A DNA stretch of 54,066 nucleotides, taken from assembly GCA_030068145.1 (NCBI GenBank), contig JAPJBO010000148.1, forward strand, positions 272,409 through 326,474. The letters run 5' to 3'. A program made the translations under genes and the position numbers. The notes beneath the pieces are model-generated. The model was not told where the DNA came from and did not search any database. It saw nothing but the letters and a program-made list of their open reading frames with translations. This document shows, in pieces, positions 3,551 to 46,200 of this stretch. Position 1 is the first letter of the stretch. The number at the start of each line of letters is the position of its first letter. This stretch comes from Diplonema papillatum. Its lineage: Eukaryota.

Positions 3551-3670
3551 TTCTCGCGTTTGTTGACTTCGGAAGTCCAGCGACTTTTTGACAAAGCAGG
3601 TCTTCTGTAGGCCTAGCTGCGGGATGTAAATCGATGTGACTGGCTGAGGGGAAGGCAGAAAGACGGCCAG

Positions 3671-8159: not shown

Positions 8160-8561
8160 CGACACTCCACCTGAAAAAAAAAAACGCGCCACGTAGTCTA
8201 CCACCCTCTTGAGGCTCTGGTGGTGAGGAAATGTCTACCATGCAGGGTCAAAACCTTGTGTCTTGTCATGCTACACAATCAATTACCTATACTTAACGCT
8301 GAACCATGGTTTTTGGTGGTTCAGTGTTAAGTATAGGTAATTACCTATACTTAACATTGAACCACCCAAAATCGCGGTTCAATGTTAAGTATAGGTATGG
8401 GTTCAGCGTTAAGTATAGGTAATTACCTATACTTAACATTGAACCGCCCAAAATCACGGTTCAATGTTAAGTATAGGTAATTACCTATACTTAACATTGA
8501 ACCACGATTTTGGGCGGTTCAATGTTAAGTATAGGTATGCTACGCATACTTTACACATGCC
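8160..8561 (-). repeat. 402-bp hairpin-rich terminal block (copy 2), 3' end of DIRS-like copy C
   Basis: Same sequence as 2400..2801. Its lone left TIR at 8239-8265 is matched by a right TIR at 8712-8740, giving a 500-bp TIR-bounded composite. Confidence 0.8.
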
Positions 8562-12446: not shown

Positions 12447-12598
12447 CATGCAGGGTCAGAACCTTGTGTCTTTTTGGTATGGCCAAAATTTTATTTCCAG
12501 AAAAAAAAGTTGGAAAAAAAAAAATTCGCTCAAGTTCAGCAAAAATTACTGCAGAGTTTGTTCCAAACTTTTAAAATTCAAAAAACCCAATTTTTTTC
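12447..12598. mobile_element. MITE copy M8, partial or chimeric (left TIR only, internal region switches orientation)
   Basis: Left TIR at 12447, flanking GTAT. There is no right TIR; the copy abuts the palindromic tandem repeat at 12598. Confidence 0.6.
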
Positions 12599-12800
12599 TA
12601 AAAATGTAAAATACAGAGAGCTCTCTGTATTTTACATTTTTAGCGAAAAATTCGCTAAAAATGTAAAATACAGAGAGATCTCTCTGTATTTTAGCGAATT
12701 TTTCGCTAAAAATGTAAAATACAGAGAGCTCTCTGTATTTTACATTTTTAGCGTTTTTTTTGCTAAAAATGTAAAATACAGAGAGCCTCTCTGTATGTTA
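12598..12800. repeat. Tandem array of ~50-bp perfect palindromes (AAAATGTAAAATACAGAGAGCTCTCTGTATTTTACATTTT + TAGCGAAAAATTCG spacer) x4
   Basis: Direct reading. Each unit is self-complementary around GAGCTC / GAGATCTC. Confidence 0.8.
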
Positions 12801-12873
12801 CACATGCCTCGTTCCGCATAGTTGCGCATAGTTGTTTGGGCTGTTCCGCATAGTTGTGCATAGTTGCGCATAG

Positions 12874-13345: not shown

Positions 13346-13584
13346 TCTGTTTCCAGAATGGCATGGAACTTGCCATCCAGGCGCAACGGGTGGTCGCTAG
13401 CCCGAGGTGGCAGGTCTCTACCCCGGCGAATCTTTACTCCGCCGGGGTAGAGATCGGTGAAGATCGGCGGAGTCAAGGTCGGCGGAGTCAAGGTCGACGG
13501 AGTAAAGGTCCGGTGGAGTAAAGGTCGACGGAGTAAAGATCCACCCAAGGCAAATTGATTTTTTTCTCTCTCCTCCTTCTGTAC

Positions 13585-13802
13585 CATGCAGGGTCAAAAC
13601 CTTGTGTCTTTTTAAAACGCTCCCGCGGGGCCGATGGACCCCAAAAAAAAAAATGGGTTTTTTGAATTTTAAAAGTTTGGAACAAACTCTGCGGTAATTT
13701 TTGAGGAAGTTGAGCAAATTTTTTTTTTGCCAAAATTTTTTTTTGGGGTCCATCGGCCCCGTGGGAGCGTTTTAAAAAGACACAAGGTTCTGACCCTGCA
13801 TG
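13585..13802. mobile_element. MITE copy M10 (variant with extended palindrome; flanks GTAC / CTAT do not match)
   Basis: TIRs are present. The subterminal aaaacgctcccgcggggccgatgg is found at both ends in inverted orientation. Confidence 0.75.
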
Positions 13803-14400
13803 CTATGCGGAACTATGCGCAAACTGTGCGGAAAAGCCCTAGTTGTTTGGGCTGTTCCGCATACTTTGGGGTCGTTCCGCATAGTTGTTTGGGCTTTTCC
13901 GCATAGTTGCGCATAGTTGCGCATAGTTGTTTGGGCTGTTCCGCATACTTTGGGGTCGTTCCGCATAGTTGCGCATAGTTGCGCATGTCCGGCCATAGAA
14001 TCCAGACCAGACACTACGTTCTGCCACGTCTTCTCCAGCGACCTCGGCATGCACCCAGGTCCTTCCCCATTCAGAGTTTGCAGCCCTCGGATATATACGC
14101 GTCGAGGCCGTTCATCGCCTTGACTCTGCTCGAGGCATATGTGTCTGCGCCCGTCCCGGTGTCCATCGCAGATGCAATTCGCACCCTTTTGGGCACCGTC
14201 GTCTCACCTCTTCCTCGATAGGCGGCAACGGGCCCGTCGAGCAGCCCCTGTTCCTCTGCCAGCTCGATCAGAAACTGCTCGCACGCCTTCGTCGCCGACA
14301 GCCAGAGTGCTTCCACTTTCCCTGGTGCCGCATCGCCGAAGCGATTCACCAACAACTCTTCCGCCCTTGCCGCTGTCCGCCCCTCGTCCACCTTGCTTAT

Positions 14401-16955: not shown

Positions 16956-18875
16956 ATGCCAGCGGTGAAGGAGATGCCCCAGCTCGATGGCGAAGTGGAG
17001 GCCGCAATCAGTTGTTCCTCGGCAACACCGGTTCATGAGGCGCAGCGTATGCGCTCACAGTTCTTGGCTCGCTGGAGGAAGAGGTCTGACGAGCTGTCGC
17101 CCCACGAAGGAGATCCTTGTCACGTCGAACTACTCGGCGAGATGCTTCGCGACCTGCGCATCTCAGGCGCTGACGATCTCCTGTTCCACCTGAAGACGGG
17201 TTGCCCCATGTCAGGCGTGGTCGGGTACGGAGGGCTCTACACTCCGGGACCCCCCGGGGCACCTGAGATGACAGAGGAGGAGTTGGTCCGGCGTCAGGGC
17301 GACGTTCTAGCGAGGTCGGTGCGGGCCATCCGTTCCGACTCCAAGGATAACAGGCTGGCGATATGGCGCTCCGTGCAGAAGGAGGTTGCTGCCGGTTATA
17401 TGGTAGCGGTTCGTCCCCCAGCTAACGCCGTCTATCTCAGGAGGTTCCTGATTCGCCAAGTGAAGTTTGACGACGAGGGCTCCCGCATCAAGGAGCGGGC
17501 CTGCGACGATGGTCGCATGGCACTGGTGAACAAGTCCGTCCACATGTCGACGCCGGTGAAGTTGGACACGACGGATGTGTACGTGGAGGTGGCCAGGCGG
17601 GTGGCTTTCGGACGACCCCGCCGCCACGTTCCGGTCTGTGGGTCTGGACCACAAGGACGCGTACCGCCAGTTGCGCGCCAGGAACGACAGGCTGTGCAGG
17701 TGCGTCGTCGTGGAGAACCCTGAGGATGGTGAGGTGGCGTACTTCCGGATGGAGCGGCTATCCTTCGGCGAGACAGCGGCTGTTGTGCACTACAACGCTT
17801 TCGCAAGGATCCTGGCGAGGTTGGTCCGCCGCGGGCTCCGGCTTCCGTTGTGCCAGTATTACGACGACTTCGCCGCCCCGACCCTGGCCTCGGACGATCG
17901 GGCGCTGACTGACGTCCTGGAACTTCTCCAGGACATTCTTCGGACGTCATTCAACGAGGAGAAGACGTCGGCAAACAACTACTTTCGCCATCTCGGCTTG
18001 ATGTTTACCATCAAAACGGAAGCAGTGAGGTCGGAATCTCAGGGCCCAGGAGGCAGGGTCTCATTCACATGCTGGAGGGAATCCTGAGCCGCGATTCCTT
18101 GTCGCCGGGGGAGGCTGCGTCGTTGGCAGGTAAGCTCGCCTTCGCGACTTCGGCGCTCTTCGGCAGGATTGGCCGCGTGCCACTCCAGCCGATCTACAGG
18201 CGCTCCAATGCGTCATCGACTTTTGCAGGGTTCAAGTTAGGTGTCGATCTTCGAGCATCCGTGAGATGGTGGGCAAGCACGCTGGCCGCAGGAGAGTTGT
18301 GTTTCAGAAGATCTGTGCCCCTTCGTCTAGTGCAGCCCGGCGTAGGCACCAGATATGTCCTCTTCACCGATGTCTGCCTCTTCGGTCTTGGCGCGGTCTT
18401 AGCTACGGTCGTAGATGGCTTTCCTACCGCGGTCGAATACTTCGCGCATCCTGTCCCCCCGGCGGGCTCAGAGCTGCAGATCCACCACCTCGAGTTTGCT
18501 GCGGTCTCGGTTGCGTTCTCCCTGTGGTTCAATGACAGATTCGACTTCACCGTCTCAGTCTGGGTTGACAACAGCATCGTGCTGGGCAGCCTGATACAAG
18601 GGCGGACAAAGGCTAAAGAGCTTCTTCTTCCGGTTCATGCGTTCTGGGAGCGTCTAGCTAGGTCCAGAGGCGATGCGTGGTTCGAGAGGGTACCGGGGGA
18701 GGACAACCTCTCTGACCTTCCCAGCCGGCTCAACCATGCCTGGGCGGATATTCCATTTAAGGGTCTACGACCCAAGAGAAGGGACGTAGAACAACGGATC
18801 GTCGACGAAGCGATCGCGGATGTGCTCGGGGGCAGTCTGTCCGGCCTGGTATCTTCCGCGTCGCCTGAGCCGTGA
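16956..18875 (+). pseudogene. RT - RNase H (DIRS/LTR-like clade) split over three frames by two frameshifts
   Basis: RT domain 1 reads VYLRRFLIRQVKFDDEGSRIKERACDDGRMALVNKSV. Domain 2 reads FRSVGLDHKDAYRQL, followed by MERLSFGETAAVVHYNAFARIL and the YYDDF box. RNase H reads ELQIHHLEFAAVSVAFSLW...VWVDNSIVLGSLIQG...FERVPGEDNLSDLPSR. The frame changes near 17575-17720 and 18069-18087. Confidence 0.6.
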
Positions 18876-19595: not shown

Positions 19596-20091
19596 ATGGG
19601 TGCCATCTCGTCGATGCAGCGGGTTCTCCTGCTGCTGTTATGTTCAGTGCTTGGGGGAGCCACCTTGGAAGACGATCCGACGCCTGCTCTCTGGTTTCCG
19701 AAGGAATTCGTACAAATGGAAATGCTGATGGCTAACGACATTCAGATCCCGGAGGAGCTGCAGCGGGAAGCCAACCCGTTGGGTGCTGTTTCCTTCATGC
19801 ACAAGTCACGGTTGTGGGTGGATGGAAGGGTAAACTTCGTTATCGATACCCTGACAACCAACCCTGACAACGCGGCTCCTGATTTCTTGCCTGAAGATGA
19901 TCCGCGCATCCTAGGTGCCGTCGCACACTGGGAAGATGTCACATGCATTCGTTTCAACAGGTGCCTCACTGTTGCATCGTGTGCTTGGCCATTCATCCGT
20001 TTCCGGTCAGACCTCGACGCGTGTAACTCTCCCCTGGGCACCGGCGGATGGGGCATTAACAACATCAATCTCGCCAGCGCTTGCACCTTGG
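19596..20091 (+). CDS. Astacin-family zinc metalloprotease (M12A), exon 1: signal peptide plus N-terminal half of the catalytic domain
   Basis: ATG at 19596. The hydrophobic MQRVLLLLLCSVLGGATL signal is followed by LWVDGRVNFVID, AVAHWEDVTCIRF and FIRF...ACNSPLGTGGWGINNINLASACTLG. The exon ends in a GT donor at 20092 (acc ttg g|gtgtgtgc), phase 1. Confidence 0.75.
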
Positions 20092-20437
20092 GTGTGTGCT
20101 CCCCCCCTCTGGTAACACCACTACTCTTGCTTTTCCAACCACTCATCAACTTTACTTCTCAATTTTTCCGTGCTTGTGTAAGCCGCCCCATTTGCTGAAT
20201 TTGTTCTGGTTTCCTAGGAAACAGACAGATATCTGTTGCCCTCTTAGCTCGCCGCTCTGTTAAATCATGTTGAAGAATCGAGTAGCAAGCTTGTGGCGGA
20301 GTCGACCATCCATTCCACGGGCCACGACGCGCCACCAACACATACGTAGAATTTTACCCTTTGCACTTAAGTCGTGATGTATTGTTGCCATCATCCATTG
20401 CGTCGTATGTTCAAGAAAACGGCTTAATCAATCACAG
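20092..20437 (+). other. Phase-1 GT-AG intron (346 bp) of the astacin gene
   Basis: Donor GTGTGT at 20092 and acceptor ...AATCACAG at 20430-20437. Splicing restores the canonical astacin spacing GC..G(G)SVIHEIGH. Confidence 0.65.
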
Positions 20438-23064
20438 GATCCGTCATCCACGAAATCGGACACAGTTTGGGTCTTTCCCACGAGCAGTCGAGGAACGACC
20501 GCGACAATTACGTGTACGTGGACTACTCACAGATCAAGCCAGGCGCCGAGAGAAATTACGACAAGACAGGGCCGAACGGGCGAGATCTCGGGCCGTATGA
20601 TTATAGAAGCATCATGCACTACTCCTCAGTCGGGTTTGCTGTCGGGAGCTTGCCGGCCATCGTTTCTCCCGAACCTATCGGTCAACGTTCGCAACTCTCC
20701 AACGGGGATATCGCGGCAATCCATTTCCTATACAATTTCTGCCAAGCCTACGACACTCCGAAATGCGTGGCATCCAGAGATACCAGCCAGACCTTGCTGG
20801 TTCCTCACTCGACTGAATTCGTTGTTGAGGTTAACGCAGAGTGGGCAGCTTCCTCGCAGATGATCGTAACTTATCCCACTACGACGGCGCCGGGGTCTCA
20901 GTTTTCCATCACACCCGGTAGCACCGTGGCAGACAGTGTGAAAACCTTTCTGTCATTTACTCCGTCTTCTTCGGATGCAGGTCAGATATTCACACTGGGA
21001 GCCATGTTCACCGCTGCGGAAAACAGCGCGCTATCGGCGACGTGCATTACGACAGTGCAAGTAGCTGACTCGGACGCCGTTTGCTTCGGCAAGTCTAAAA
21101 CGGATCCAACGGTCTGTTCTGGGAGGGGTGAGTGCACCACGGATCCGCTTCAGCCGTGCGTTTGCGCCTCTGACTTCGGCGGCATCCAGTGCGCCGGATA
21201 TGCAAACTGCCCTGCGAACCATTTCTACGCCTTTGACGAAGTCGACACGTTGTGGTCCGGTAACCTAGCTTCACTCGACGGCAGTTTCAAGGTATCTGGC
21301 TCTTCCATGAAGCTTAACGGGTATACCTTCCTTAACGTGGATCCCAGTGGTGTGTTTTCATGGATGACCTTCCACTTCGCGGCGAACGCATCTGGTGAGC
21401 AACTCGGGTTCTACGACACGGCACAAGGCAGCTGCTTTCATCTGACTTTTGCTGATCTTATTCTTGTATCAGGGATTTCGACTGGGGTGCCGTTCGAAGT
21501 GAACCGTTTCTTCTTCATCGAAGTCCTTCTGCTACCGTCTGCGAATCAGCTTTCGCTTAGAATCGATGGAAATGAGGTGGCCACTGGCATTTCCATGGCC
21601 AATCAGTGCCACACAAGCGGTGTGGCTTGGGTGGCCGCGTTCGTTCCGGAAAGCCACGTGGCGTGGCTTGACGAGTTCAATTTCTACTGCCACTCGCATG
21701 TGTCCCTGACGGGTACCTTGTTGGATGCGGATCAAAGCGAGCTTGTTGCTGGCGGATTGTCTCTTACCCTCACAATCGATGGAGACACATGGGTCGACTC
21801 GGAACAGACCAAAATCGACCTCATCGAAGGCATGGCGTCCGACTACCCCGCTCCAGGTGGCTGGGACGACTGGAAATTGATCATGTTAGACCCGTCTCTT
21901 GTGACCATTGCCGGAAACGAGATGGTAATTGGTCCATTGAAGCCCTTCCCGGGGTACACGGAGAGTTTGTCGGTGAATGTTAACATCAAGATCAAAGAAA
22001 CAATGATTACCACTGGTGATCTGCCGCTGGGTCACCAGGACTTGACATTTATGATCGAAGGACTATGCTATCGGTCATGGTTCTACGGGTTCGACGACAC
22101 AGCCGCTACCATCAAAGACGGCTTCACTTTTTCTACGACCATTGTCGCTGAAGGCGCGGCTTCGGTACAACTTTCATCCGCTGACCCTGACAGGAGTCTT
22201 CCGTTGTATGTAGGTGGGATACGCCCGGCATCAGTCAGCTATTGGGCTCGGTACGCTGCGGACAATCCTGGGGGGGCTTCAACGTACCATACGGTCGTGG
22301 CCAGAAGTCGCGAAGGGGGGAGTTTTCAGTTTCTGACAGGATTCTCCTCAAAGTTCGCTGCTTATGTGACCAGTCCCGTGCAGGGCGGAACCGCCATTCC
22401 AAACCAGTGGTACTTCATCGAGTGGACCATCGACTGGAGCGCGAGGACAGTGTCGTTCTCGGTCGACGGGGCGCAAATTATTGCCAATGTGGCGCTGCCC
22501 CCTGCTGCTCAGTTCAGCTCCGTCGACTCCTTCCTGACGTACGCGTGGAGTTCTCCCAGCTATTTTGACTCTCTTCGGGCGGACTGCCCGATGCGGCCTC
22601 CAGCGTTCACCGTGTCGCCAGCCTCCTTCGCCCCTTCTTTCGTTCCTAACTTCGAGTTCTTCAGAGGGTCCGACCCCCTTTCCCTCAATGATGCCATTGC
22701 TGTTGTGCCGGGGGCATCGACAGACTGCAGCGCCGTGAACACGGCGTGCGCTTCCTTGGGCGCTTGTTCTTCTCTTGCGGGCTTTTTGGCTGAGGCGGAG
22801 TTCGGCATAGCTTGGCACGAAGGTGACTTCACCGGTCTTGCTCCGGAAACTACATACCGGGTTTGCTATCGTATCTCGGCCTCGGGCAGTTTCGAGCTCC
22901 TCGAGTCAAGTTTCACGACAAGCGCAGGTATGTTACTCACACACCCAAATAGCCGGACCCTAATCGCGTATACAAAGGTGCTGTACCCAACGACAAACAG
23001 GAGCGGTTGTAGCATTACTTTGCTTTCAAGCATACAAGCGCAACTTGCTACAGAAGTTCAGTAG
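20438..23064 (+). CDS. Astacin metalloprotease, exon 2: zinc site HEIGHSLGLSHEQSRNDRD, Met-turn SIMHY, then an EGF-like module and a large LamG/ConA-like region
   Basis: The continuous ORF runs to TAG at 23062-23064. It contains HExxHxxGxxHEQxRxDRD and YDYRSIMHY. The EGF-like stretch reads CSGRGECTTDPLQPCVCASDFGGIQC. About 600 aa of beta-rich sequence follow (KLNGYTFLNV...GFYD...) with no recognisable repeat contamination. Confidence 0.8.
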
Positions 23065-23682
23065 CCGAGTTTTCAAAACATCCGTCTGCCATGGATTTCA
23101 TTGTTCTTTCCACCGAGCTGCGCGTTTTGGTTTATTGATGCCACGTTCGACTCAACGAAAAATCACACCTGTGATATTCACCTCAGCGGTATTTCTTTCG
23201 GAGAACCAACAAACATGCGACACCCCTCCTCCGGAACTTCTCGAATGCTCGGTGTCGGTCACAAGTTGTTTCGAACCTGACTTGCCAAAGCAAGTAAAGT
23301 GTACACGAATGAAGCCATGCATGCCCCCCCAAACCCACCCAGTATGTATTAGCTTCAACCGAACCCATTCGATGAAGGTCACCCGGAGACTCTAAAATCC
23401 CGGATTCTCAAGCGAACTATAACTCTGAAAACGTTTTTTTTTTTTGTAAACCGACCGTGTTACCGACACAACGCAAAGAAGAGGGGCAGCAGTCAGTTGT
23501 GAGACTGGCAGGTGAGCAGGGTCACCTCCCCTAGCGAGCTCTCGGATCAAGCTGCGTCTGATGCAGCTGTTGTATGGATCGCCTACATAGACTCAGCCGC
23601 GCGTGCCTTCATTGCGAAGGTTACTGCTGCGGCCTTCTGGGTGGCAGCCGTGTCAGGTCAAGTAGCGAGATCTGAGGCCCTG

Positions 23683-23915
23683 TGATGGCTGAGTGCACAC
23701 CTAAGCAGGGCAGCATCCTCGTGTTGTAGCCGTGTTGTGTATAAGGCTTCGTGGGGGCCTGGTCAACCACCTCATCACTATAGGGCACAAACCTTTCTCG
23801 ACAGTGATTGGACAGTCGGGATTGCCGGGGGCGGGTCTCCATGAAGAAGAGAATTGCAAAGCAAGACCCGCCCCCTGCGCCTGCTGTCTCCAGCTGCTTC
23901 GGCAGACGACACATA
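23683..23915 (+). repeat. Dispersed ~230-bp repeat (second copy at 37252..37480, ~90% identical)
   Basis: ctgtgatggctgagtgcacacctaagcagggc(a/t)gcatcctcgtgttgtagccgtgttgt...cttcggcagacgacacatac is shared by the two loci. Confidence 0.75.
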
Positions 23916-24020
23916 CTACTACTACTACTTTCGCCTGATGCCGCAACCCCTTAACCCGGGCGGCGGCGCTTTGGCATGAGCCAGGAACCTCAAGGGAGAG
24001 GCATCATCCACGCTTCAAAG
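23916..24020 (+). repeat. Local ~105-bp direct repeat (second copy 24618..24740) bracketing a GC-rich 600-bp segment
   Basis: cgcctgatgccgcaaccccttaacccgggcggcggcgctttggcatgagccaggaacctcaagg...catcatccacgcttcaaaggcccacacacatact occurs at both sites. Confidence 0.75.
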
Positions 24021-25006
24021 GCCCACACACATACTACTACTACTACTTTAAACGGCCGCAGATCAACAACCGGGAGGCCTTCGAGCGGTGATGCGGGCGT
24101 TCGAAGTCGCCGCTGTACGGCACGTGCCCAAAAAGATGGCGAACAAAGGAAGGGGCGACCAGAGCGGCCACTGGGAGAAGGCGGGTGTCCTGACCGGCAG
24201 CTTCCGACCCCAGGCCCACTACCCACGGGGGTGGCAACACAGCGGGGAGAAGTGGAAGGCACGGGCAAGACACGACCGGGCGACGCACCGCCGCGCACGC
24301 GGCGGCGGCAGCCGCCACCTTTGGGACGTCCTAGCGAACGCCGAGAAGAAGAAAGCCGACGCGCAACGGGCGGGGTGCAGACCGGGATCGTCAACCAACC
24401 GCCCGACAGCGGCTGCAGCAACAGCGGCAGCGACATCGACAGCGGCGACGTCGCGAGAGCGCACGGAAGGACCCGCGGCACAGCACCAGTCCATTCCCCA
24501 AGCGGGGGGGGGCGTGGAACCCTCCCCCGGGATGACGAAGGCCGGGGAGAGCCGGGGGCAGTGAAGTAACGAAGCCCGCGAACGGTGGGTGACCCCTCCG
24601 AACAGCCTCCCTGGCCCTGGCCCACGCCTGATGCCGCAACCCCTTAACCCGGGCGGCGGCGCTTTGGCATGAGCCAGGAACCTCAAGGGGAGCAGCGCGA
24701 GAGGCATCATCCACGCTTCAAAGGCCCACACACATACTTTGTAAACCGACGCAACGCAAAGAAACGAGCAAGGAGTCATCCGACGATGGCTCCGGCCTGG
24801 AAGCCACAACGACACCCACTCTTAGGCCGCCCCCGCGGCACCAATCGGTGAAACATGACAAAATAACTTCCAACAGTGCGATACAGAAATCTCCTGATGG
24901 GGGATCCTCTCGGCTTTTCCCAGAAATGCGGGAGCTCGCTAGGGAGCTAAAGTTGAGAACTTCATATTACCTTCACCTCTAGACTCGAAAAATATCCCTA
25001 CGCTTA

Positions 25007-28000
25007 TTGCCATCTATTGCACCACAAACAGAACCAGTACCGACGATCGCGCCAGCAACTGACGCACCGCCGACATTTGCACCGCAGACTGCTTCACCGC
25101 AAACAAATGCACCACCAACGAATGCGCCGCCAACTAATGCACCGTCAACAGCTGCACCTCCAACGAGTTCACCACCAACAGGCGCACCGGCAACGACTGC
25201 ACCACCAACAAATGCACCACCGACCACTGCACCACCAACGAATGCGCCACCGACTAATGCACCGCCAACTGATTCGCCACCAACAACTGCACCACCAACG
25301 AATGCACCACCAACAAATGCGCCACCAACAACGGCACCGCCAACGAATGCGCCACCAACGAATGCGCCACCAACAAATGCGCCACCAACGAATGCGCCAT
25401 CAACAGCTGCACCACCGACCACTGCACCACCAACGAATGCGCCACCGACTAATGCGCCACCAACAACTGCACCGCCAACGAATGCGCCACCAACGAATGC
25501 GCCACCAACGAATGCACCACCAACGAATGCGCCACCAACGAATGCACCACCAACAAATGCACCACCAACTAATGCACCACCAACAAATGCGCCACCAACA
25601 ACGGCACCGCCAACGAATGCGCCACCAACGAATGCGCCACCAACAAATGCGCCACCAACGAATGCGCCATCAACAGCTGCACCACCGACCACTGCACCAC
25701 CAACGAATGCGCCACCGACTAATGCGCCACCAACAACTGCACCGCCAACGAATGCACCACCAACGAATGCGCCACCAACGAATGCACCACCAACAAATGC
25801 GCCACCGACTAATGCGCCACCAACAACTGCACCACCAACGAATGCACCACCAACGAATGCGCCACCAACGAATGCACCACCAACAAATGCGCCACCGACT
25901 AATGCACCACCAACAACTGCACCACCAACGAATGCACCACCAACAAATGTGCCACCAACAACGGCACCGCCAACGAATGCGCCACCAACGAATGCACCAC
26001 CAACAAATGCGCCACCAACAACTGCACCACCAACGAATGCGCCACCAACGAATGCACCACCAACAAATGCACCACCAACAAATGCGCCACCAACAACTGC
26101 ACCACCAACGAATGCGCCACCAACGAATGCACCACCAACGAATGCGCCACCAACAATGCACCACTGCACCACCAACAACTGCACCACCAACGAATGCGCC
26201 ACCAACGAATGCACCACCAACGAATGCACCACCAACAACTGCACCACCAACGAATGCGCCACCAACGAATGCACCACCAACAAATGCGCCACCAACTAAT
26301 GCACCACCAACAACTGCACCACCAACGAATGCACCACCAACGAATGCGCCACCAACAATGCACCACCAACGAATGCACCACCAACGAATGCACCACCAAC
26401 GAATGCACCACCAACGAATGCGCCACCAACGAATGCACCACCAACAAATGCGCCACCAACGAATGCACCACCACAACTGCAACCAACAATGCACCAACGA
26501 ATGCACCACCAACAAATGCGCCACCAACGAATGCACCACCAACAACTGCACCACCAACGAATGCACCACCAACGAACGCGCCACCAACGAATGCACCACC
26601 AACAAATGCGCCACCAACAACTGCACCGCCAACGAATGCGCCACCAACGAATGCACCACCAACAAATGCGCCACCAACAAATGCGTCACCAACAATTGCA
26701 CCACCAACGAATGCACCGCCAACGAATGCGCCACCAACGAATGCGCCATCAACAACTGCACCACTGACCGGTGCACCGCCAACGAATGCACCACCAACGA
26801 ATGCGCCACCAACAACTGCACCACCAACGAATGCGCCACCAACAACTGCACCACTGACCGGTGCACCGCCAACGAATGCACCACCAACGAATGCAGCACC
26901 AACAAATGCGCCACCAACAACTGCACCACTGACCGGTGCACCGCCAACGAATGCACCACCAACGAATGCGCCACCAACATCTGCACCGCCAACGACCGCA
27001 CCGCCAACGAATGCGCCATCAACAACTGCACCACCGACCGGTGCACCGCCAACGAATGCGCCACCAACAACTGCACCACTAACGGATGCGCCACCAACAT
27101 CTGTACCGCCAACGAATGCGCCATCAACAATTGCACCACTGACCGGTGCACCGCTAACGAATGCACCACCAACATCTGCACCGCCAACAAATGCGCCACT
27201 AACAACTGCACCACCAACGACTGCGCCACCGACCAATGCTCCGACAACAACTGCACCGTCAACGAATGCGCCCCGAACAATCGTACCGCCAACAACTGCA
27301 CCACCAACAAATGCGCCCCGAACAAACGCACCGACAACGACTGCACCACCAACATCTGCACCGCCAACGAATGCGCCCCGAACAAACGTACCGACAACAA
27401 CAGCACCAACGAATGCGCCTTTCACGAACGCACCACCAACGAATTCACCACGAACGAATGCACCAGCTACAGTCGCACCACAAACAGGTGCCCCATTGAC
27501 CAGTGCGCCGCTAACTGATGTCCCGGGAACAAGTGCACCATCAACTGCTGCACCGGCTACAATTGCACCGCCAACTGATGCACCCGCAACAGTCGCTCCA
27601 CGAACAGATGTACTGCTGACCAGTGTACCGACGAATGCGCCACCAACTTATGCGCCCAGGACAGTCGCTTCACCATCTGATGTTCCGCAAACAAGTACTC
27701 TTGCACCGGCTACAAATGCACCGCCAACTGATGCACCCGCAACAGTCGCTCCACGAACAGACGCACCGCTGGCCAGTGTACCGACGAATGCGCCACCAAC
27801 TGATGCGCCCAGGACAGTCGCTTCACCATCTGATGTTCCGCAAACAAGTACTGGTGCACCGGCTACAAATGCACCTGCTACCACATCGCCTCGAGCACCA
27901 CTACCGTGTCCGCTGACGGCTCGGCCTACCAAGTCAAAGTCTTCCTGGGGGGGATGGAAGGCACCACGGCCTGCTCCTCGCAGACGATCCGGCGACACGG

Positions 28001-28053
28001 GCCACGACGGCGACGACGATGACCAAAAGCGCTCGAAGCCCGGCCGACACTGA
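25007..28053 (+). CDS. Putative Pro/Thr/Asn/Ala-rich (PPTNA)n mucin-like repeat protein; the reading frame hops three times inside the array (near 26160, 26340, 26480). Either a pseudogene or an assembly error
   Basis: In the + strand PPTNA frame the unit variation falls on third codon positions (synonymous). The degenerate flanks stay P/T/A/S/V-rich. The frame ends at a stop at 28051-28053 after an acidic DGDDDD tail. No ATG or signal peptide lies upstream (the ORF-track start at 25007 is TTG). The minus-strand frame (GGAFV)n fits the same third-position pattern, so the coding strand is not settled. Confidence 0.35.
25075..27900. repeat. ~2.8 kb tandem array of a 15-bp unit CCACCAACGAATGCG (~185 units, more degenerate toward 27450-27900); no stop codons in any of the six frames
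   Basis: Direct reading. Unit variants differ mainly at unit positions 9 and 15 (acg/aca, gcg/gca) and at 10-12 (aat/act). Confidence 0.9.
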
Positions 28054-29295
28054 GAAGCGACCCACGTACCAACTCTCCCGGGCACGCAACGAAATTGCCA
28101 ACGAAACCGAACCGCGTGCGCAAAGGGGATCCACACAGGCAGAGCAACGCGTGCGCGCAGACGCCATACTTGCTCTGACAAGTACAATGATAAGGCCAAC
28201 TTAAACAACTGAAGGGGGGGTAGACCTATTATCCACCCGTTTTTTTTCCGGAATTTCCGCGAACATTAAAACTAACGGCGTTAAATTGCTATTATCCAGG
28301 CTTTATCCAATGGTTATCCAAGGGCTATCCAGGGTTTTGTTGCTGGTGTCATTTTTCCTTCGCGCCTTCGGCGCGATATTGATTGTTGTTTTCGTAAAAC
28401 CAACCTGTCCGGTCGAAACCCAGCTCACGTTCCCTGTTAGTGGGTGAACAAGCCAACCCTCAGACAATTCTGCTTGTCTAAGAAGTCAACATCGAAGGAT
28501 CGAAAAGCAACATTGCTATGAACGCTTGGCTGTCACAAGCCCTTCCCTGCGGCAATTTTTCTGTCACCTCCGGCTTCATCCCTTGAACATAACTGAGGGA
28601 TTCTGATACACAAGGCACTCCCGCGATTCCCGTTCTTTTTTCCTGCCTGGCCGACGTTCATCAGCCGTATCTGCAGCCGCGCCAGTAGCACCTGCACCGG
28701 GTCCGACCAATTCTGAGTGCACTGAGACGACAGAAAGGAAAATAGTCCACAAGCAGCGCTCTCCTCTTCACAGCGCCAGCAAAGCAAAGCGCACCCACAG
28801 GGTGGCAGAGTGTGCTGGTTCACAAAACACTACACCAAACCGCGGCCTTTGTTGGCAACATTTACATTCTATGCTGTTTCCACACTTCTTCTCACTTGGT
28901 GTGCTGTTGTTACACTCACAGCGGGTGGACAGGTCCACTTCCGTAAAAAATTAACTCGCCACTGAAAAACTAAAAAGTTAAATTCATAGATGGCCGTTAT
29001 ATACCGTTATATAACATTATATAACGGTATTCCCGGAGTTATTTGTTACCCCCCCCCCAGCCTAGAACATTGCTTGGCCCTTGACCCGCGCCCACGGCAA
29101 GGTCTTTGTGGTTTTTTTTTGGTGGCCTCATCACCCGGGAGAGGGGGGGTCCGGGGGGCTTCGCTCCCCGGCGAACGGTATGGTACATCAAATTGGGCCA
29201 AATTGGGGGTCACCCCCCGGCGCACGGTACACTACACCAGGTACAGGTACAGTCCCGGGTGTGTGACGATAGACGTCGGCTTGGCGCTTTACAGC

Positions 29296-29745
29296 CAAAT
29301 CGGGTATGTTACGCTCGTGTTACGCTGTTTTTTAGCGAAACTCGTCATGTTACGCTCGTGTTACGCTGTTCTTTAGCGAAAATTATCATGTTACGCTCGT
29401 GTTACGCTGGTTTTTAGCGAAAATTGTCATGTCACGCTCGTGTTACGCTGTTTTACAGTCAAATTGGGCATGTTACGCTCGTGTTACGCTGCTTTACAGC
29501 CAAAATTATCATGTTACGCTCGTGTTACGCTGTTCTTTAGGGAAACTTGTCACGTTACGCTCGTGTTACGCTGTTTTTTAGCAATAATTTTCATGTTACG
29601 CTCGTGTTACGCTCTTTTTTAGGGAAAATTATCATGTTACGCTCGTGTTACGCTGTTTTACAGTCAAATTGGGCATGTTACGCTGCTTTACAGCCAGAAT
29701 TATGATGTTACGCTCGTGTTACGCTGTTCTTTAGCGAAAATTGTT
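29296..29745. repeat. ~41-bp satellite (CATGTTACGCTCGTGTTACGCTGTTTTTTAGCGAAAATTAT) x ~11
   Basis: Direct reading. Bracketed by inverted copies of a 45-bp GC-palindrome motif at 29130-29180 and 29935-29985. Confidence 0.8.
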
Positions 29746-32470: not shown

Positions 32471-35400
32471 TCTCCCCAAAGGACAGAAAATACTTTAGCG
32501 ACGTTTCACATGCTGGCCACAGTTGGGGGCTCTTCATAGATTGAACTTGGCACTTTCAGAATCTCCACATTCAAGGAAAAACTAAGTTTAGGGGGCTTTA
32601 ATAAAACAGGGGAGTAGCTTCCAATAAACTTCGAACATGGGATACCCGCAGTCGACCGCGATATTCTCTAGTGTGTTCAAAGAGGCTAATCCTAGTCGCT
32701 GCATCCCAAGTTCAAAAACGACTACGACGAGACGGATCCCGGGTCCTCGAGCTCGTCGGACCAGCAGCGGGCGTGAAGCGCACCGCGTGGTGAGCACTGG
32801 AGTGGCGAAGTGGCGGATCTTCACCTCGGCAAATCTTTAGTCCGGCGAAGCGAAGATCACCGAACTGAAAGTCGTCGCACTGAAGATCGCTGAACTGAAG
32901 ATCAATCGTCGAACTGCTGAACAGAAGATTTCCAAATTGAATATTGCCGAACTGAAGAGCCTCATTGAAAATTCAAATGCGCCTTGCAGGATCTTCTTTT
33001 CCGCAAAGTGAAAAATCCTGCAAGGCAATTTCGAACGAACATATCAGAGTCATTACCGACATAATTTGATGCAGTCGACTTGGCTGGTACAGAACGGAAG
33101 AGGGCATTCATTAGATTCAGGTTCTTCGAGTGGGATGCGGAGAAACGACATTTCTTTTTTGACCTTACTCCATTTCATACTCGCAACCAGAGTTATCGGG
33201 AAGTAAAAACTTCAAGAAATTATTCCCACTGTACGCTTCACAATCAAACAAACGGAAACCTCAAAACCACAATAAACGCTGAAAACTTCAAAACACCGAC
33301 CGCTTATCACACTGGAACAGTCCAGTCAAAAGGTCGATCTGTACGGGATCGTAGCCTATCCGGGATCGTCAGAAACACGAAAAAGAACTGTCCGAGCCAG
33401 GGGATTAGCTACTGTTACCAGATTCGGACCGCGGTCGATCTATCTAGATCGAATCTGGCAATCGGCCGTGGTCAAAAAGTAATAAAACATGGTCCTACGA
33501 AGGTCTGTTCTGGAGGAATTCTTCCGGCCTGAGGGTGCCTGGGTGTGGAAGGAACCCGTGTAGTAGAACCTATATACTTCGATTTTGGCACCTGTCACTG
33601 GACTGGGACTAGCCCAGTAGCTATAAAAACTAAATTTTCCGCGCCTGCAGGTATTAACACCCACCCGAGAGCAAAAAACTGAGATGGTCCGAATCTGGCA
33701 GCGCCGACAAATCTGTAGCTAATACCCTGGTCGAAGCGAATACCGCAAAAAACTTTCACCAGGGGGTTATGCACTGCAGCGGTTGGGTGAGGTAACTCAC
33801 CCAAAAAAAAAAAAAATCGAAAATCAGGTGGGGGGTTGGGTTGATTTACACTACCTCGGATTGGGTTGGGCAGGAGTTTGGTGTCTGTAATCTTGGGTTG
33901 GGCAGAGGTTTTGGGTGTCTGTAGTGGGAATTATTTCTCCTATTCTGGCTGTGCTACTGAAGAGGGGCGAGACCTTTCATCTGAACAATCATCAGTAGGC
34001 TAGGTGTCTTCTGGAGGACACGCTGCAGAAGGTCCTGCCTTAGTCAGGACATCAGATTCTGAGGCACCATGTACCATACCGTCTCCCAGGGGGCGGTGCC
34101 CCCTGGACCCCCCATAAACTATCTACAAGATTTCGAATTTTCGCCTGTTACCAGGCATCAGTTTCTGTTACAGGTTCCGAACAAGACAGAATCTGAAGTG
34201 CCATGTACCGTACCGTCTCCCGGGGGGCGGTGCCCCCCGGACCCCCCCTGCATTAAGACTCACCAGAAAAAATGGGCTTGGTGTCTAGTCTGAAGGAGAA
34301 AATGGGCTGCATAAGGTCCTGACTTTCACTCTAAAAAAAAAAAAAAATCGGACCCGAGTCTGATACTCAAAAAGTCTTCACGGAACAACAGAAATGCCGC
34401 CGCTAAGCCGCGCGGCCTTTTGTCAACGTAAGCAACAGGGTTAGTGAATCCTACGCGGTTCCCAGTACCGGACCTCAGAACGTGCCGGAACCGGCAACAA
34501 GTGGGTCCTCAGTCAGGCGCAGACTGCGGCGAAGGATCACTTCAAGGGGAACTCTCAAACAAACAATCTAGGGACATTAGCTTGTATCCCCCCTACCCCA
34601 GAACCCCCCGCACACCGCTTAGTCTACACGGCGTGCTTATAAATGAGCAGCGTTTGTATGCAGTAACTGGCAGATTGAGAGCGATGAATTGTGTGGTGGT
34701 GCATGGCCGCTCGGAGTGATTTGTCAGGTTGATTCCGTTAACGAACGAGATCTCGACCCTTAAATAGGTGGGTGTGTCGTTGTAGGGGGTGCCTTTTGGC
34801 ATCGGCGGCTTGCTGCTTACCCGAGACGCGCACTACTTCTTAAGGGGACTGCGCGCGACTTATAGCGCGCGGAAGAGCGAGCCAATAGCAGGTCTGTGAT
34901 GCTCCTCAATGTCCTAGGAATTAGAGCTTCCTGGTGTGCTGGTTTACAGGGGGGTTTTCCGGCTTTTCCCCCCCTGGCGGAATAGACTGCAAGAAGATTT
35001 ACCGGTAAACAAGGGACCATTTTTCCCGAGGACCCCCGTTTTTTTTATGGTAACAACCGCGGTTGTCATTATCAAAAAGTGACGGTTTGGCAGCGTATAC
35101 TGTGAAAATTACCAAACAGGTGATAGCACATACGCACAAACAATCCCGGCTGTGCGTTAATTCTTTGCCAAAAGATATCCAGAAACGGGGCTGCCGTATG
35201 TTCTTTCCCGTGTTTGTATAAGAAACGGACCCAGCGCTTCCTTTGTTGGCGCGCACTTACGCACCTGCTTTCAGGGGACTTTAACACTTTGTCTGACCGA
35301 GCAAAATCGGTTTGAGCCCAACCCCCCGGGTTGGGGCCTTGCCGTCGGCTTTAGCGTCGCCCTGCACACCTGTGAACAATGAAACGGAAGGGGTGGTGAT

Positions 35401-37251
35401 CAATAGGCTTGTTCGTTTCGGTGGCGGTGTGCATGACACGAGACTGCTGGCGCGCGAAAAGTTTGGATCGGGGAATATTCTGTGCAGCTCAGTGCCACAA
35501 TTCCGTCCGCTCTGCTCTGTGGCCAACCGTCTCGACGAGCTTGTGTTCAGCGCGAAGGTGCGCCAAGCCTTGATGCTTTAGCCACTTGACCCGTAGGCCC
35601 GTGGCTCTGCAGTACCGCCGAACACGTGAAGCTTGGCTCCCGTGTCACAGGCTTTCCCTGGTACCTATGCCGGGCATACAGGAAGATTATGGAAGGGTGG
35701 ACAACGAAGCAGTGAACGGAACTGCAAGGGATATTGCTCAGCTGCACGAGGCCTGCAAACCACACACTTTCTTCCTTGAAGACACCAAACCAGCCAATGC
35801 AGTCTCACCGATACATCAAAAAATAGCAGTAACGACGGGCAGCCTCAGTAACCCAGTTAGAATCTGCAAGAGGTGGCATGCAGACCCCGGTGCGCTTTGT
35901 GTGCCGTTCTTAGCACAGGTTCTAGTCGCCAACATAAGGTGCAGACTTGTGTCACGGTGACCACAGCCCACCAGTGTAAAAATAGTTGGAAACATTCCCG
36001 TCCAAAAACAATTCTTTTTTGGAAACTGACTCGACCGGTCGAGCGGTCGAGCCTGACTGCACTACTCAGGAATAGGGGAGAAAAAGCGAAAAGAAAAGCG
36101 ACAAAGCGGAACACTGCACGGTCGAGAACCCCGACCTCCAGTCCACCCCTCCCCGCTCTTGTAGTAGACATTTGTTCACACACACATGCACTCTCTCTCT
36201 CTCTCTCACTCACATCCATCGCTTTGAGTTCGCGCCCCTTATCATCAAAGTGAACCAATGACACCAATCCGCACCCCCATACGGGATCGTCGGAAACACA
36301 AAGGAAAAATCGAACATGCGAACAACATATCGGAAGCATCCGATACTTCACTCCAGCGCTCGCGCTAAGAAAACTACTGGACAAATTAGCTCTGCGTGCA
36401 CGTATGATCTAGACGTTGTCTTCTCGAAGTTGCCGATAAAGCCGGCCGTCGTTGGGGGCTCTGTCCTCGACAACACAGCCGGAACAGCAGATCCAACGAG
36501 CTAGGCACGAGTGTCGTGTTGCGACGAGTGGCAGCCCAATTTCCAGGAGACCCGTGCAAGGAAAAACCAGGTTTCTCAGGAAGCTGTTCCAAAAGTATGG
36601 CCGGCCTATCGGCCTTAGCGCGAGCATGGGTCCTTCCATTTTATAATATTCATCACAGTGTTTTTCCTGTGTGGTGAACAATATTTTCCGCCAAAACCCC
36701 CCCTCCTTTCGCAAAAATGGGGCTGGCTAAAAAACTTCTTTTTTCCACAGGGGTTTCATTGACAAAACTTTAGAAGTTACAATGTAACAATACTTACGGG
36801 TAGCACAGGTCTGCCAGGCAGTGACAACCTTGCACACGTCTTGCCGGGTCAACCTTGCAGATGGGATAGGAGTCATGGTCAGGCTGTACCCAAGACGCTG
36901 TTCGTGTTAAGGCGCAGTCTGAGGGGTGTTTCGGGGATGTTCAGAGCAGCAAAAGGTGTCGCGTTGACTTCTAAGCTTCGCGCCACCATGCATCCATGCT
37001 TTCTTGCAAAGAGAACTCTTCCGCCCTGGACTCGGCACAAAAACCGTTTTCTGCATGAAAGAGATTGGGCGAGAGTTCTTTTGGCCTCTTATTGTGAACC
37101 GTGGAGTTTTTTTAGCCAGCCAATTCCATTTTCACTTCACGAGGCGACACTGTTGACCGCGCCTGAATTAGCTGCGGTCGCCGATCCCCCAACCGCCAGC
37201 ATCATGTACTTGACGCGACGCGGAACGAAGCGCTGCTTAGCAGCCAATGGC

Positions 37252-37480
37252 CTGTGATGGCTGAGTGCACACCTAAGCAGGGCTGCATCCTCGTGTTGTA
37301 GCCGTGTTGTATACAAGGCTTCGTGGGGGCCTGGTCAGCCACCTCATCACAATAGGCACAAACCTTTCGCGACCGTGATTGGACAGACGGGATGCCGGGG
37401 AATGGTCTCCATGAAGAAGATAAAAGTAAAGCAAGACCTGCCCCCTGCGTCGGCTGCTTCGGCAGACGACACATACCATT
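37252..37480 (+). repeat. Second copy of the dispersed ~230-bp repeat (see 23683..23915)
   Basis: Sequence match read by eye. Confidence 0.75.
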
Positions 37481-37888
37481 ACTATTGTGCAGTCTATCGT
37501 CACAGATTCGTCATCTGGTGATTCCTCGAGCTCGTCGTCAAACTGCACATCGGATGTTAAGCGCGCACCGGAGACAAACAGTACGCGGGCAAGAAGCGAC
37601 CGAAGCATGACACGACGCGTGCAAAGAGATAGTCTGTAGCGTCTATCTTCACAGATTGTTGCTGCATAACAAGTTCAAACTACTACCACTACTGGCTAAA
37701 AGCACTTGGAACGTTGCGCTTCCCTGCTTTCTGAGATAACGGGAGTTCGGTTTGTTGAAGGCATTATGGTCTTTCAGTCGCGATCCGCGCTGTATCAACA
37801 AAGACCTCTTTGCGGATCAGTTCCCGAGGATCGAAGTAGAGTTGCAGAGAAAGCGTTTCCACTCAGTAGCTACTGCGGTAGGTGGGTT

Positions 37889-38373
37889 CCAATCAGTATG
37901 GCATCAGGGAAGCTCCATATTCAGTAGTAGGTAGTCGGGTACTTGTTAGCAGGGGTCCAATCAGTATGGCATCAGGGAAGCTCCATATTCAGTAGTAGGT
38001 AGTCGGGTACTTGTTAGCAGGGGTCCAATCAGTATGGCATCAGGGAAGCTCCATATTCAGTAGTAGGTAGTCGGGTACTTGTTAGCAGGGGTCCAATCAG
38101 TATGGCATCAGGGAAGCTCCATATTCAGTAGTAGGTAGTCGGGTACTTGTTAGCAGGGGTCCAATCAGTATGGCATCAGGGAAGCTCCATATTCAGTAGT
38201 AGGTAGTCGGGTACTTGTTAGCAGGGGTCCAATCAGTATGGCATCAGGGAAGCTCCATATTCAGTAGTAGGTAGTCGGGTACTTGTTAGCAGGGGTCCAA
38301 TCAGTATGGCATCAGGGAAGCTCCATATTCAGTAGTAGGTAGTCGGGTACTTGTTAGCAGGGGTCCAATCAGA
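37889..38373. repeat. 68-bp tandem repeat x ~7 (CCAATCAGTATGGCATCAGGGAAGCTCCATATTCAGTAGTAGGTAGTCGGGTACTTGTTAGCAGGGGT)
   Basis: Direct reading; the copies appear identical. Confidence 0.9.
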
Positions 38374-42845: not shown

Positions 42846-43313
42846 GCCGCAGGCTTTGCCGCAGGCTTTGCCGCAGGCTTTGCCGCAGGCTTTGCCGCAG
42901 GCTTTGCCGCAGGCTTTGCCGCAGGCTTTGCCGCAGGCTTTGCCGCAGGCTTTGCCGCAGGCTTTGCCGCAGGCTTTGCCGCAGGCTTTGCCGCAGGCTT
43001 TGCCGCAGGCTTTGCCGCAGGCTTTGCCGCAGGCTTTGCCGCAGGCTTTGCCGCAGGCTTTGCCGCAGGCTTTGCCGCAGGCTTTGCCGCAGGCTTTGCC
43101 GCAGGCTTTGCCGCAGGCTTTGCCGCAGGCTTTGCCGCAGGCTTTGCCGCAGGCTTTGCCGCAGGCTTTGCCGCAGGCTTTGCCGCAGGCTTTGCCGCAG
43201 GCTTTGCCGCAGGCTTTGCCGCAGGCTTTGCCGCAGGCTTTGCCGCAGGCTTTGCCGCAGGCTTTGCCGCAGGCTTTGCCGCAGGCTTTGCCGCAGGCTT
43301 TGCCGCAGGCTTT
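42846..43313. repeat. Perfect 12-bp microsatellite-like array (GCCGCAGGCTTT) x 39
   Basis: Direct reading; 468 bp with no variant units. Flanked by ~90-bp repeats (ggaaacaggggtggcc(t/c)ggctcaccgactagtt(t/c)gtaatgtgaaaaggaatcggaa(t/c)cgcttcgctctcgag(a/g)ccactgtgcaa) at 42518-42605, 42760-42845 and 43540-43620. Confidence 0.9.
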
Positions 43314-43647
43314 GTCGCAAGGTCTGCCACTTCTTCGGTGTCGAGCTTCGGATAAAACAGCCGTCTGTGTTTCATCAGCGCAGAGGGCTGCAGGCGTGGA
43401 AACGCGGTTGCACACGAGGCAAATGAGGTGGTCCTTTTGCCGTGGGCGGAAACGAACTGGAGCAAAGTGCAAGTGCACTCGCTTTGTTGATTCCAGCAGG
43501 GTGTCGTAGTGCTGGTGGTCAACGTCTTCCTCGCCGGCTTCCTCGTTCGGTCTGGCTTGGGTACAAACGAGTTCGTATTGTGAAAAGGAATCGGAATTGC
43601 TTCGCTCTCGAGACCACTGTGCAAGGTAGCAGCAGCAGGCAGTTCGA

Positions 43648-45455: not shown

Positions 45456-46200
45456 TTAACATAGATGGCCGTTATATAACGTTATATAACGTTATTCCCG
45501 GAGTTATTTGTTACCCCCCCCCTAAATCCAGAAAAACCGTTATTGACCGTTATAAAACCGTTATTTGCCATTTTTGGTCGAAAAATAACGTTATTTGACC
45601 GTTATATCGTTATAATAACAATATATAACGTTATATAACGTTATATACCGTTATATAACGTTATTTTCGTCGCATGATACCGTTGTAGGGAGAAATCTGT
45701 AGGGGACACCCCTCGCAAAGTTTTTTTTTCTCCCTGTGACGAGTGAAATCGCGCGTTTTCAGCTCGTTTTGAGCCAAATCCGGTAGTGTTTGACCCTCAG
45801 TGCTCAAAGATCTGTGAAGAAAACCCCTCCTGTGAACGCTCCAGTCAAGCACCGTCTGCTAAAAAACGGAAGTCGAAGGTACTACCAAAATAGGCCAAAA
45901 TCTGAGAAAATCGGCAAAAATGGCCAAAAACCACCAAATATGGCCAGAAATCTGGAATAAGGGTAAAAATGGCCGAAATCTGGAAAAATCGGCAAAAAAT
46001 GGCCAAAATCTGAAAATTCCCAAAAACCGTTATTTGCGTTATTTTTTCCGTTATTTTGCGTTTTCGACCGTTATATAACGTTATATAACGTTATATAACG
46101 TTATGACCGTTATAACGTTATATAACGTTATATAACGTTATATAACGTTATCAACCGGCCATCTATTATTTAAAAGATGACCGGCCATCTATTATTTAAA
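45456..46200. mobile_element. ~720-bp TIR-bounded non-autonomous element made largely of (CGTTATATAA)n and AAAATGGCCAAAATCTG tandem words
   Basis: The left end is tttaacATAGATGGCCGttatataacg (45456-45485). The right end, reverse-complemented, is tttaaataATAGATGGCCGGttgataacg (46155-46174, duplicated at 46181-46200). A matching left end occurs alone at 28985-29010. Internal segments are shared with 29040-29075, 30997-31020 and 31840-31925. Confidence 0.55.

Follow-up and report, generated by a model that had tools for sequence, protein, structure and literature searches.

What does a long array of a 15-bp unit encode, and on which strand, when its consensus unit is free of stop codons in all six frames? 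This question was raised by a 54,066-nt stretch of Diplonema papillatum DNA (assembly GCA_030068145.1, contig JAPJBO010000148.1, positions 272,409–326,474 of the forward strand), hereafter called the window and numbered from its first base, in which such an array occupies positions 25007–28053. A reading made from the sequence alone (the sequence-only reading) had proposed a mucin-like gene with PPTNA repeats and ambiguous strand, possibly with an upstream signal-peptide exon. Homology supported a mucin-like coding repeat rich in proline and threonine (PT-rich) on the + strand and the upstream signal-peptide exon, but not a stand-alone mucin gene. The array forms the C-terminal exon of a gene for an astacin metalloprotease, and the first exon of this gene lies 5.4 kb upstream. 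We hold it highly probable that the array, read on the + strand, codes for the C-terminal domain of a secreted zinc endopeptidase of the astacin family (M12A), the product of a three-exon gene of this diplonemid flagellate.

The exon 2 open reading frame (ORF) was most similar to astacins of D. papillatum and to further diplonemid sequences. Its best match was P0001 ("Nematocyst expressed protein 6"; 63% identity, E = 0), which carries the Pfam families Astacin and Extensin_1. A tblastn search with P0001 (1312 aa) gave + strand matches in the window in the same order as in the protein: aa 1–167 at 19596–20096, aa 166–996 at 20437–22920, and aa 997–1312 repeatedly over the array. This co-linearity indicates that the array is exon 3 of the upstream gene. 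Exon 1 (19596–20091, +; P0001 aa 1–167, 66% identity) belongs to an ORF at 19596–20198 that opens with ATG, and it encodes a hydrophobic signal-peptide-like segment (MGAISSMQRVLLLLLCSVLGG), a propeptide and the beginning of the astacin domain, with a weak Pfam Astacin match and the donor TTGG|GTGTGT. Intron 1 (20092–20437, +; 346 nt, GTGTGT...CACAG, phase 1) was placed from the gap between the tblastn high-scoring segment pairs and from the sequence, and its removal restored CTLG|SVIHEIGH, in agreement with CTLGVVIHEIGH in P0001. Exon 2 (20438–22927, +) encodes the zinc-binding motif, the Met-turn SIMHY and a domain of ~730 aa without a Pfam family, and ends in ...ELLESSFTTSA. A single high-scoring segment pair spanned P0001 aa 166–996 at 63% identity without a frameshift or stop. 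The 865-codon ORF at 20467–23064 (+), upstream of the array, contains the C-terminal half of the astacin domain.

The profile of the astacin family (MEROPS M12A) matched exon 2 well above its threshold (PF01400, 87.4 bits against a cut-off of 22.5) and continued weakly on exon 1. Both the extended zinc motif HExxHxxGxxHExxRxDRD and the Met-turn SxMHY were found in the translation, as HEIGHSLGLSHEQSRNDRD and RSIMHY. The catalytic motifs are intact, and zero frameshifts were found over the 995 aa of exons 1 and 2. As judged by the translation, the encoded zinc protease is of the astacin type, starts with a hydrophobic leader at its N-terminus and has an active site that is intact. Locally, no ATG or signal peptide precedes the array, as had been remarked before, but the gene has both at 19596, two introns upstream.

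The putative intron 2 (22928–25031, +; 2104 nt, phase 1) was placed from the sequence, with the donor CAG|GTATGT and the acceptor caccacaaaCAG|AA. The homology to P0001 stops at ...FTTSA, exactly at the start of this perfect donor. Given a phase 1 donor and a stop of the PPTNA frame at 24980, the compatible AG acceptors beyond that stop are limited to the CAGs at 25030–31 and 25036–37, at the very start of the PT sequence. Acceptors at 24924 and 24983 were rejected owing to the in-frame stop at 24980 or the wrong phase. The proposed splice sites match the consensus of diplonemid introns, with (G)/GTATG at the 5′ splice site, CAG at the 3′ splice site and a tract rich in C and A (PMC12621601). 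The intron contains dispersed repeats (23679–23924 resembles 37251–37484 at 88%, and 23372–23431 resembles 50069–50129) and an internal duplication of ~105 nt (23932–24035 and 24625–24738). Long introns of D. papillatum often contain transposable elements (PMC10161547), and a 2.1-kb GT–AG intron with transposon debris would join exon 2 to the array. The spliced junction ...SSFTTSAEPVPTIAPATDAPPT aligned with ...SNFTTGEDAEATAAPQTSAPPT in P0001, with ...FTTCGSAEPTSAPDTDAP in P0003 and with the P0004 junction. It follows the junction pattern of the family, FTT[SGC]x(2-4) and then PT repeats, and FTT[SGC]..PT-rich was found in four homologues. The co-linear order of signal peptide, astacin domain, FTT-ending middle domain and PT repeats, seen both by tblastn and in the junction alignment, depends on the proposed intron 2.

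Exon 3 (25032–28053, +) comprises the PT-rich repeat domain, a 58-aa basic tail and the stop, and P0001 aa 997–1312 matched it by tblastn in + frames only. After frame correction, its product is 994 aa and that of the whole gene ~1990 aa. The frame-corrected PT domain of ~936 aa consists of P (34%), T (23.5%), A (20%), N (11%) and S (3%), and contains 165 AP.T motifs. With tandem repeats dominated by Pro and Thr/Ser and a predicted secreted product (the hydrophobic N-terminal leader in exon 1), the region has the features of a mucin-like (proline/threonine/serine, PTS) domain. The non-repetitive basic C-terminal tail (27877–28053, +; ...SPRAPLPCPLTARPTKSKSSWGGWKAPRPAPRRRSGDTGHDGDDDDQKRSKPGRH, TGA stop at 28051–28053) was 41% identical to the P0001 tail over 69 columns (BLASTP, E = 2e-6), with PCP, KAPR and AP[KR]RRS in common. 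In P0001, the non-repetitive part ends in ...ELLESNFTT and is followed by ~290 aa of PT-rich sequence with AP.T. periodicity and then by a basic tail. An AP.T.-type PT-rich region after the middle domain was found in at least six homologues (P0001, P0003, P0004, P0005, P0006 and P0007). Four of these six PT-carrying diplonemid astacins are Trinity or EukProt transcript ORFs; therefore, the PT region is translated in one mRNA with the protease. Astacin, proline, threonine, linker and mucin are all absent from the main text of the paper on the D. papillatum genome, and the sole mention of astacin in its supplement is inside a transposon table (PMC10161547). A literature search for diplonemid together with astacin found nothing relevant.

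As assembled, three breaks interrupt the reading frame between the start of the PT region and the tail. Tracked by its Ala-Pro junctions (GCN CCN), the PPTNA frame is frame 2 at 25019–26144, frame 0 at 26166–26346, frame 2 at 26360–26465, and frame 1 between 26491 and the stop at 28051. Alignment of the break zones to an ideal array gave seven deletions, 16 nt in sum, and zero insertions, all inside 340 bp of the most uniform core. Break 1 (26147–26170, +; frame 2 to 0) consists of deletions of 1 nt in an A-run and of 7 nt relative to the 15-bp register, break 2 (26349–26359, +; frame 0 to 2) of 1 nt in an A-run (ACAAATGC to ACAATGC), and break 3 (26466–26492, +; frame 2 to 1) of four deletions of 1, 2, 1 and 3 nt. 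A change of AAA to AA accounts for three of the seven. The three irregular units that the sequence-only reading had described do shift the PPTNA frame; these sizes do not agree with its description of them as 1-bp-scale.

The alternative that survives best concerns these breaks. It holds that the gene is the same and the breaks are real, so that recent deletions truncate the protein after 375 aa of PT repeats and 48 aa in the TNECT frame, at a stop at 26297–26299. The outcome would be either a shorter stalk without the basic tail or an early-stage pseudogene. We regard this as a serious possibility that falls somewhat short of an even chance. The deletions are present in the sequence as given, and the spliced coding sequence as assembled ends at residue 1417, in the TNECT frame. 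Moreover, the 7-nt deletion and the cluster of four are not classic single-base homopolymer errors, and the gene is absent from annotated protein sets. Against real breaks, the 1.56 kb past the last break keeps the PPTNA frame open through degenerate units and into the tail homologous to that of P0001; over the last 850 bp (27200–28050), in which each of four other frames contains 5–8 stops, this frame is free of internal stops. Any inactivation would therefore be very recent, since the downstream frame and tail are still kept. Exons 1 and 2 are also fully intact. Furthermore, every one of the seven indels is a deletion, they cluster in the most homogeneous part of the core, where reads are placed and polished least reliably, and three of them are the identical AAA-to-AA change.

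A comparable hop is found in P0021, a D. papillatum model annotated "Early nodulin-12B, partial" on a 2.9-kb contig. Its PPTNA-type array is read first in a frame shifted by one base (...RTANQCSADERTANQ..., the RTANQCSADE frame) and then in the APPTN frame, so a frame hop is built into a public gene model. Many APPTN-tailed models are annotated as partial, and such arrays appear to be trouble spots of assembly and annotation, which also speaks against real breaks. The breaks in the window are either assembly errors or very recent events, because the sequence downstream is still open and homologous and exons 1 and 2 are free of defects over 995 aa. If real, they would be very recent and would cut the product at residue 1417 instead of ~1990. 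Their position in the most uniform 340 bp would be explained somewhat better by consensus or assembly deletions than by biology, and we lean slightly toward artefact. Either a pseudogene or a collapsed or mis-assembled repeat, both of which the sequence-only reading had listed, may account for the frame hops.

A second alternative is that the array is an orphaned exon remnant. A repeat insertion at 22928–25031 would have split the exon, the gene would end at the read-through stop at 23064, and the array would be untranscribed or lie in a 3′ untranslated or intergenic region. The homologue P0004 carries protease and PT repeat in a single uninterrupted exon, the intervening 2.1 kb of the window consists of dispersed repeats, and PT-like codons (LPSIAPQT) reach ~24 nt upstream of the proposed acceptor. 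These observations favour such an insertion. The edges of the segment argue the other way: the homology to P0001 ends exactly at a perfect diplonemid donor, G|GTATGT, and the two in-phase CAG acceptors lie only at the PT start. In addition, the frame and tail of the array are conserved, and transposons are common in D. papillatum introns (PMC10161547). We consider an orphaned exon unlikely.

The repeat itself was characterized to judge whether it behaves as coding sequence. The homogeneous core (25102–27465, +; unit GCN CCN CCN ACN AAT, read as APPTN) contains 158.9 copies with 78% matches and a score of 2549 in Tandem Repeats Finder (TRF). Degenerate PT-type units extend the array to ~25032 and ~27880, for a total of ~190 unit lengths, which bears out the ~185 copies estimated earlier. 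The 155 in-register units comprise 52 distinct DNA sequences and encode 31 different peptides; 91 of the units read APPTN and 22 read APPTT. Their entropy was 0.52–1.57 bits at third codon positions and 0–0.5 bits at most of the first and second positions. The sequence-only reading was therefore right that variation is concentrated at the wobble positions of the PPTNA frame; the N codon, at which AAT alternates with ACT, is the exception. The commonest unit variants are CpG-type G/A changes. The Thr codon is ACG in 73 units, ACA in 61 and ATG in 0, and the Ala codon is GCG or GCA in 145 units versus GTG or GTA in 4; the decay of CpG is thus confined to the synonymous direction. These variants are not independent events, because units have been copied in blocks: 25301–25485 is identical to 25571–25755 (higher-order duplication at 25301–25755, +; a 185-bp exact copy at a lag of 270 bp, or 18 units, found by an exact-run scan and a lag-identity profile). 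In the degenerate 3′ part of the PT domain (27549–27875, +), TRF found a 153-bp higher-order repeat of 2.1 copies with 95% identity.

The claim that the array has no stop codon in any frame did not hold beyond the consensus unit. Across 25007–28053, each of the six fixed frames contains 7–16 stops, which arise in variant units, for example ACTAATGC or CTGACC. The hopping PPTNA path on the + strand is the sole path without internal stops. A neutral, non-coding minisatellite that is open in several frames by chance is, on this evidence, very improbable. The stop-free consensus, the block duplications, which are typical of minisatellites, and the prevalence of CpG-type changes are as it would predict. 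Codon-position structure and protein homology in the flanks are both present in the array, and the CpG changes are only synonymous (ACG/ACA 73/61 versus ATG 0). The degenerate flanks are open on the PPTNA path only, the flanking tail and junction are homologous to proteins, and PT-rich regions lie at the same place in six homologues. A plain minisatellite, which the sequence-only reading had kept as a refuting outcome, is already contradicted by this homology.

In regards to the strand, wobble-biased variation cannot choose, because the GGAFV frame on the minus strand shares its wobble positions with PPTNA; the earlier statement that the variable positions are equally synonymous in GGAFV is correct. 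A codon score against the astacin exon did not discriminate between the strands either (−0.149 per codon for + and −0.087 for −). The earlier ambiguity is resolved by homology on the + strand together with an in-frame stop on the minus strand, and these place the predicted coding strand on +. The stop is a TAA in the GGAFV frame at 27648–27650 (−), where the + strand bases encode Tyr and the sister 153-bp copy has Asp, and the minus ORF 27648–28208 terminates there. The degenerate 3′ part of the array, used as the query, matched many secreted proteins of D. papillatum that carry APPTN/APPTD/APLTT repeats at the C-terminal end, behind N-terminal domains that are unrelated. The least credible reading, already contradicted, is that the minus strand encodes a glycine-rich protein of GGAFV repeats: its equally "synonymous" look, a slightly better codon score and an ORF of five GGAFV units on an unrelated bacterial metagenome contig are set against the in-frame TAA, three frame breaks that hit the minus strand too, no ATG or signal peptide, minus-strand translations of the array that matched no Pfam family, and homologues that all align to the + translation as part of an astacin ORF.

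That contig came from a metagenome scan with a degenerate three-unit APPTN pattern, which matched two contigs only, both unrelated. One is a eukaryotic contig with a short run beside an ORF that resembles carbonic anhydrase by eye only. The other is bacterial-looking (L003, contig Ga0070735_10029679), and at 2987–3553 (−) its ORF of GGAFV units lies opposite an APPTN-type pattern, which shows that an antisense GGAFV reading can occur in predicted proteins elsewhere.

Several points weigh against the assignment of the array to the astacin gene. Intron 2 and its acceptor are deduced from the sequence, and the P0004 gene has no intron at this position. As assembled, the array start (frame 2) is out of phase with the tail (frame 1), and the full protein cannot be encoded. 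The wobble-biased variation is blind to strand and comes from block-copied units. No protein near 100% identity to the window gene was found in a collection of 5.8 billion proteins; the gene is either unannotated or from a genome outside that collection. Lastly, O-glycosylation and a stalk role are drawn from analogy.

With the array taken as the C-terminal domain of the astacin, the ~190 pentapeptide units (APPTN, with variants APPTT and APLTG) would form an extended, disordered stalk, and by analogy both its O-glycosylation and its stalk function are probable. PT linkers and mucin domains elsewhere are extended, protease-resistant spacers. The stalk would hold the protease away from the target of the short basic, Trp-containing tail, or would make the enzyme extended and resistant to proteolysis. 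The paralogues P0004 and P0006 have a transmembrane anchor in place of the tail, which suggests that the stalk presents the protease at a distance from a surface. The array would grow and be homogenized by unequal exchange of multi-unit blocks, as in the 270-bp and 153-bp higher-order repeats, and selection on the peptide would hold the first two positions of each codon constant. D. papillatum is regarded as a predator that relies on secreted hydrolases (PMC10161547); a role in extracellular digestion fits this picture, which we give as context and not as evidence.

A broader proposal is that the APPTN-type array is a lineage-specific cassette shared by unrelated secreted proteins of Diplonema (astacins, CUB and Cys-rich proteins), to which it was added to build a mucin-like coat of the surface or feeding apparatus, and that the stop-free unit is a selected, frameshift-tolerant design. 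We consider this doubtful. If it were true, the frame hops in the window and in P0021 would be real products of slippage and would yield viable variants of length and sequence, not dead genes.

The assignment to the astacin gene turns a repeat that was ambiguous in six frames into a defined last exon and recovers a gene for a protease of ~1990 aa that is absent from the searched protein sets. It also flags PT arrays as break points of diplonemid assemblies and gene models, in that many D. papillatum models with the repeat are partial and one contains a frame hop. Furthermore, it extends the view of diplonemids as predators that possess a large arsenal of secreted enzymes. The main text of the genome paper discusses neither a family of astacins on long PT stalks nor the APPTN tail that recurs on unrelated secreted proteins.

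The window is eukaryotic in character, with no tRNAs in a tRNA scan, short fragments of eukaryotic large-subunit (LSU) and small-subunit (SSU) rRNA, and many repeats. The LSU fragment (28402–28541, −; model positions 2832–2984, 121.7 bits) lies only 350 bp downstream of the stop of the protease gene, and the SSU fragment is at 34664–34910 (+; model positions 1229–1478, 106.3 bits). Both are short and isolated in repeat-rich DNA and look like dispersed fragments derived from ribosomal DNA, not rRNA genes. The tRNA and Rfam scans of the window otherwise returned only sub-threshold matches to plant microRNA precursors, which are irrelevant to the array; these fall on palindromic hairpin repeats at 12589–12802, 13584–13804, 46048–46156 and other places, on both strands and all below the gathering scores. 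Such repeats are most likely similar to miniature inverted-repeat transposable elements rather than microRNA genes. Just upstream of the protease gene, an ORF at 18069–18875 (+) matched, below the threshold, the RNase H-like domain found in reverse transcriptases of retrotransposons. Two identical complex repeats of ~220 bp (2558–2777 and 8318–8537), each internally palindromic and 5.76 kb apart, flank a run of minus-strand ORFs of 258–726 aa without a Pfam match, and the segment between them is possibly a bounded transposable element. A 665-codon ORF at 155–2152 (+) is hydrophobic at its N-terminus and contains an acidic stretch and segments rich in Cys. It matched no Pfam family, and a search with its 650 aa at 200–2149 gave no homologue at E ≤ 1e-5 in the collection of 5.8 billion proteins.

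The region is dense in further tandem arrays. A near-perfect 12-bp array (GCCGCAGGCTTT) at 42846–43319 (39.5 copies, 99%) has ORFs of >200 aa on both strands and is another repeat open in several frames. A 68-bp array at 37884–38372 has 7.2 copies with 99% identity. The nuclear genome of D. papillatum carries arrays whose 68-bp motif stems from the mitochondrial chromosomes, namely from their constant region (nuclear copies of mitochondrial DNA; PMC10161547); the likeness is one of period alone and may be a coincidence. Other arrays are located at 29306–29744 (41 bp, 11 copies), 52651–53413 (63 bp, ~10 copies, with higher orders of 126 and 345 bp), 52129–52210 ((AC)41) and 3–96, at the window edge (11 bp, 8.5 copies).

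Among known proteins, P0001 is most like the product of the window gene. In both, a signal peptide is followed by an astacin domain, a ~730-aa middle domain with FTT at its end, a PT region of AP.T. pentapeptides and a basic, Trp-containing tail (PCP...KAPR...AP[KR]RRS), and they share 63–66% identity over the non-repetitive 995 aa. The PT region of P0001 is heterogeneous and ~290 aa long, whereas that of the window gene is threefold longer (~940 aa), consists for the most part of a single 15-bp unit, shows higher-order copies of 270 and 153 bp, and contains three frame breaks. P0004 (ENA) and the transcriptome sequences P0006 and P0007 also have PT-rich repeats after the same middle domain, and the P0004 repeat is likewise a tandem array in DNA (24 bp, 17 copies, 93% identity). 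Their units differ from those of the window (PTMTPAIV; APATxAP), and the C-terminal ends of P0004 and P0006 consist of a transmembrane helix with a cytoplasmic tail, whereas no hydrophobic segment is present in the tail of the window gene. The D. papillatum proteins DIPPA_50586, 50587, 52271 and 52596 and "Early nodulin-12B, partial" share APPTN, APPTD and APLTT pentapeptides at the C-terminal end and N-terminal signal peptides with the window gene, and P0021 among them shares its kind of frame hop. Unlike the window gene, their N-terminal domains are Cys-rich or CUB (CUB in 52271) and none is an astacin; all are annotated as partial, with visible repeats shorter than those of the window.

Animal mucins, trypanosomatid mucins and the "PT box" linkers of bacterial and fungal cellulases are secreted proteins with tandem Pro/Thr-rich repeats, fast copy-number evolution and an expected extended, O-glycosylated form. 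The array resembles these PTS domains and PT linkers, as they are generally known, in its tandem Pro/Thr-rich repeats of low complexity. It differs from them in that it has no sequence homology to them, Asn and Ala are major components, and Ser accounts for only 3%. The array also scored 148.6 bits against PF02095 Extensin_1 (cut-off 105), the family of plant extensins. The extensin Ser-Pro(3-4) motif (Ser-(Hyp)3-5) is absent, with 0 SPPP in the 994-aa frame-corrected product, and the match thus reflects proline-rich repeat composition, not common descent. These comparisons indicate that the domain is of an ordinary and well-known kind and is here unusually long.

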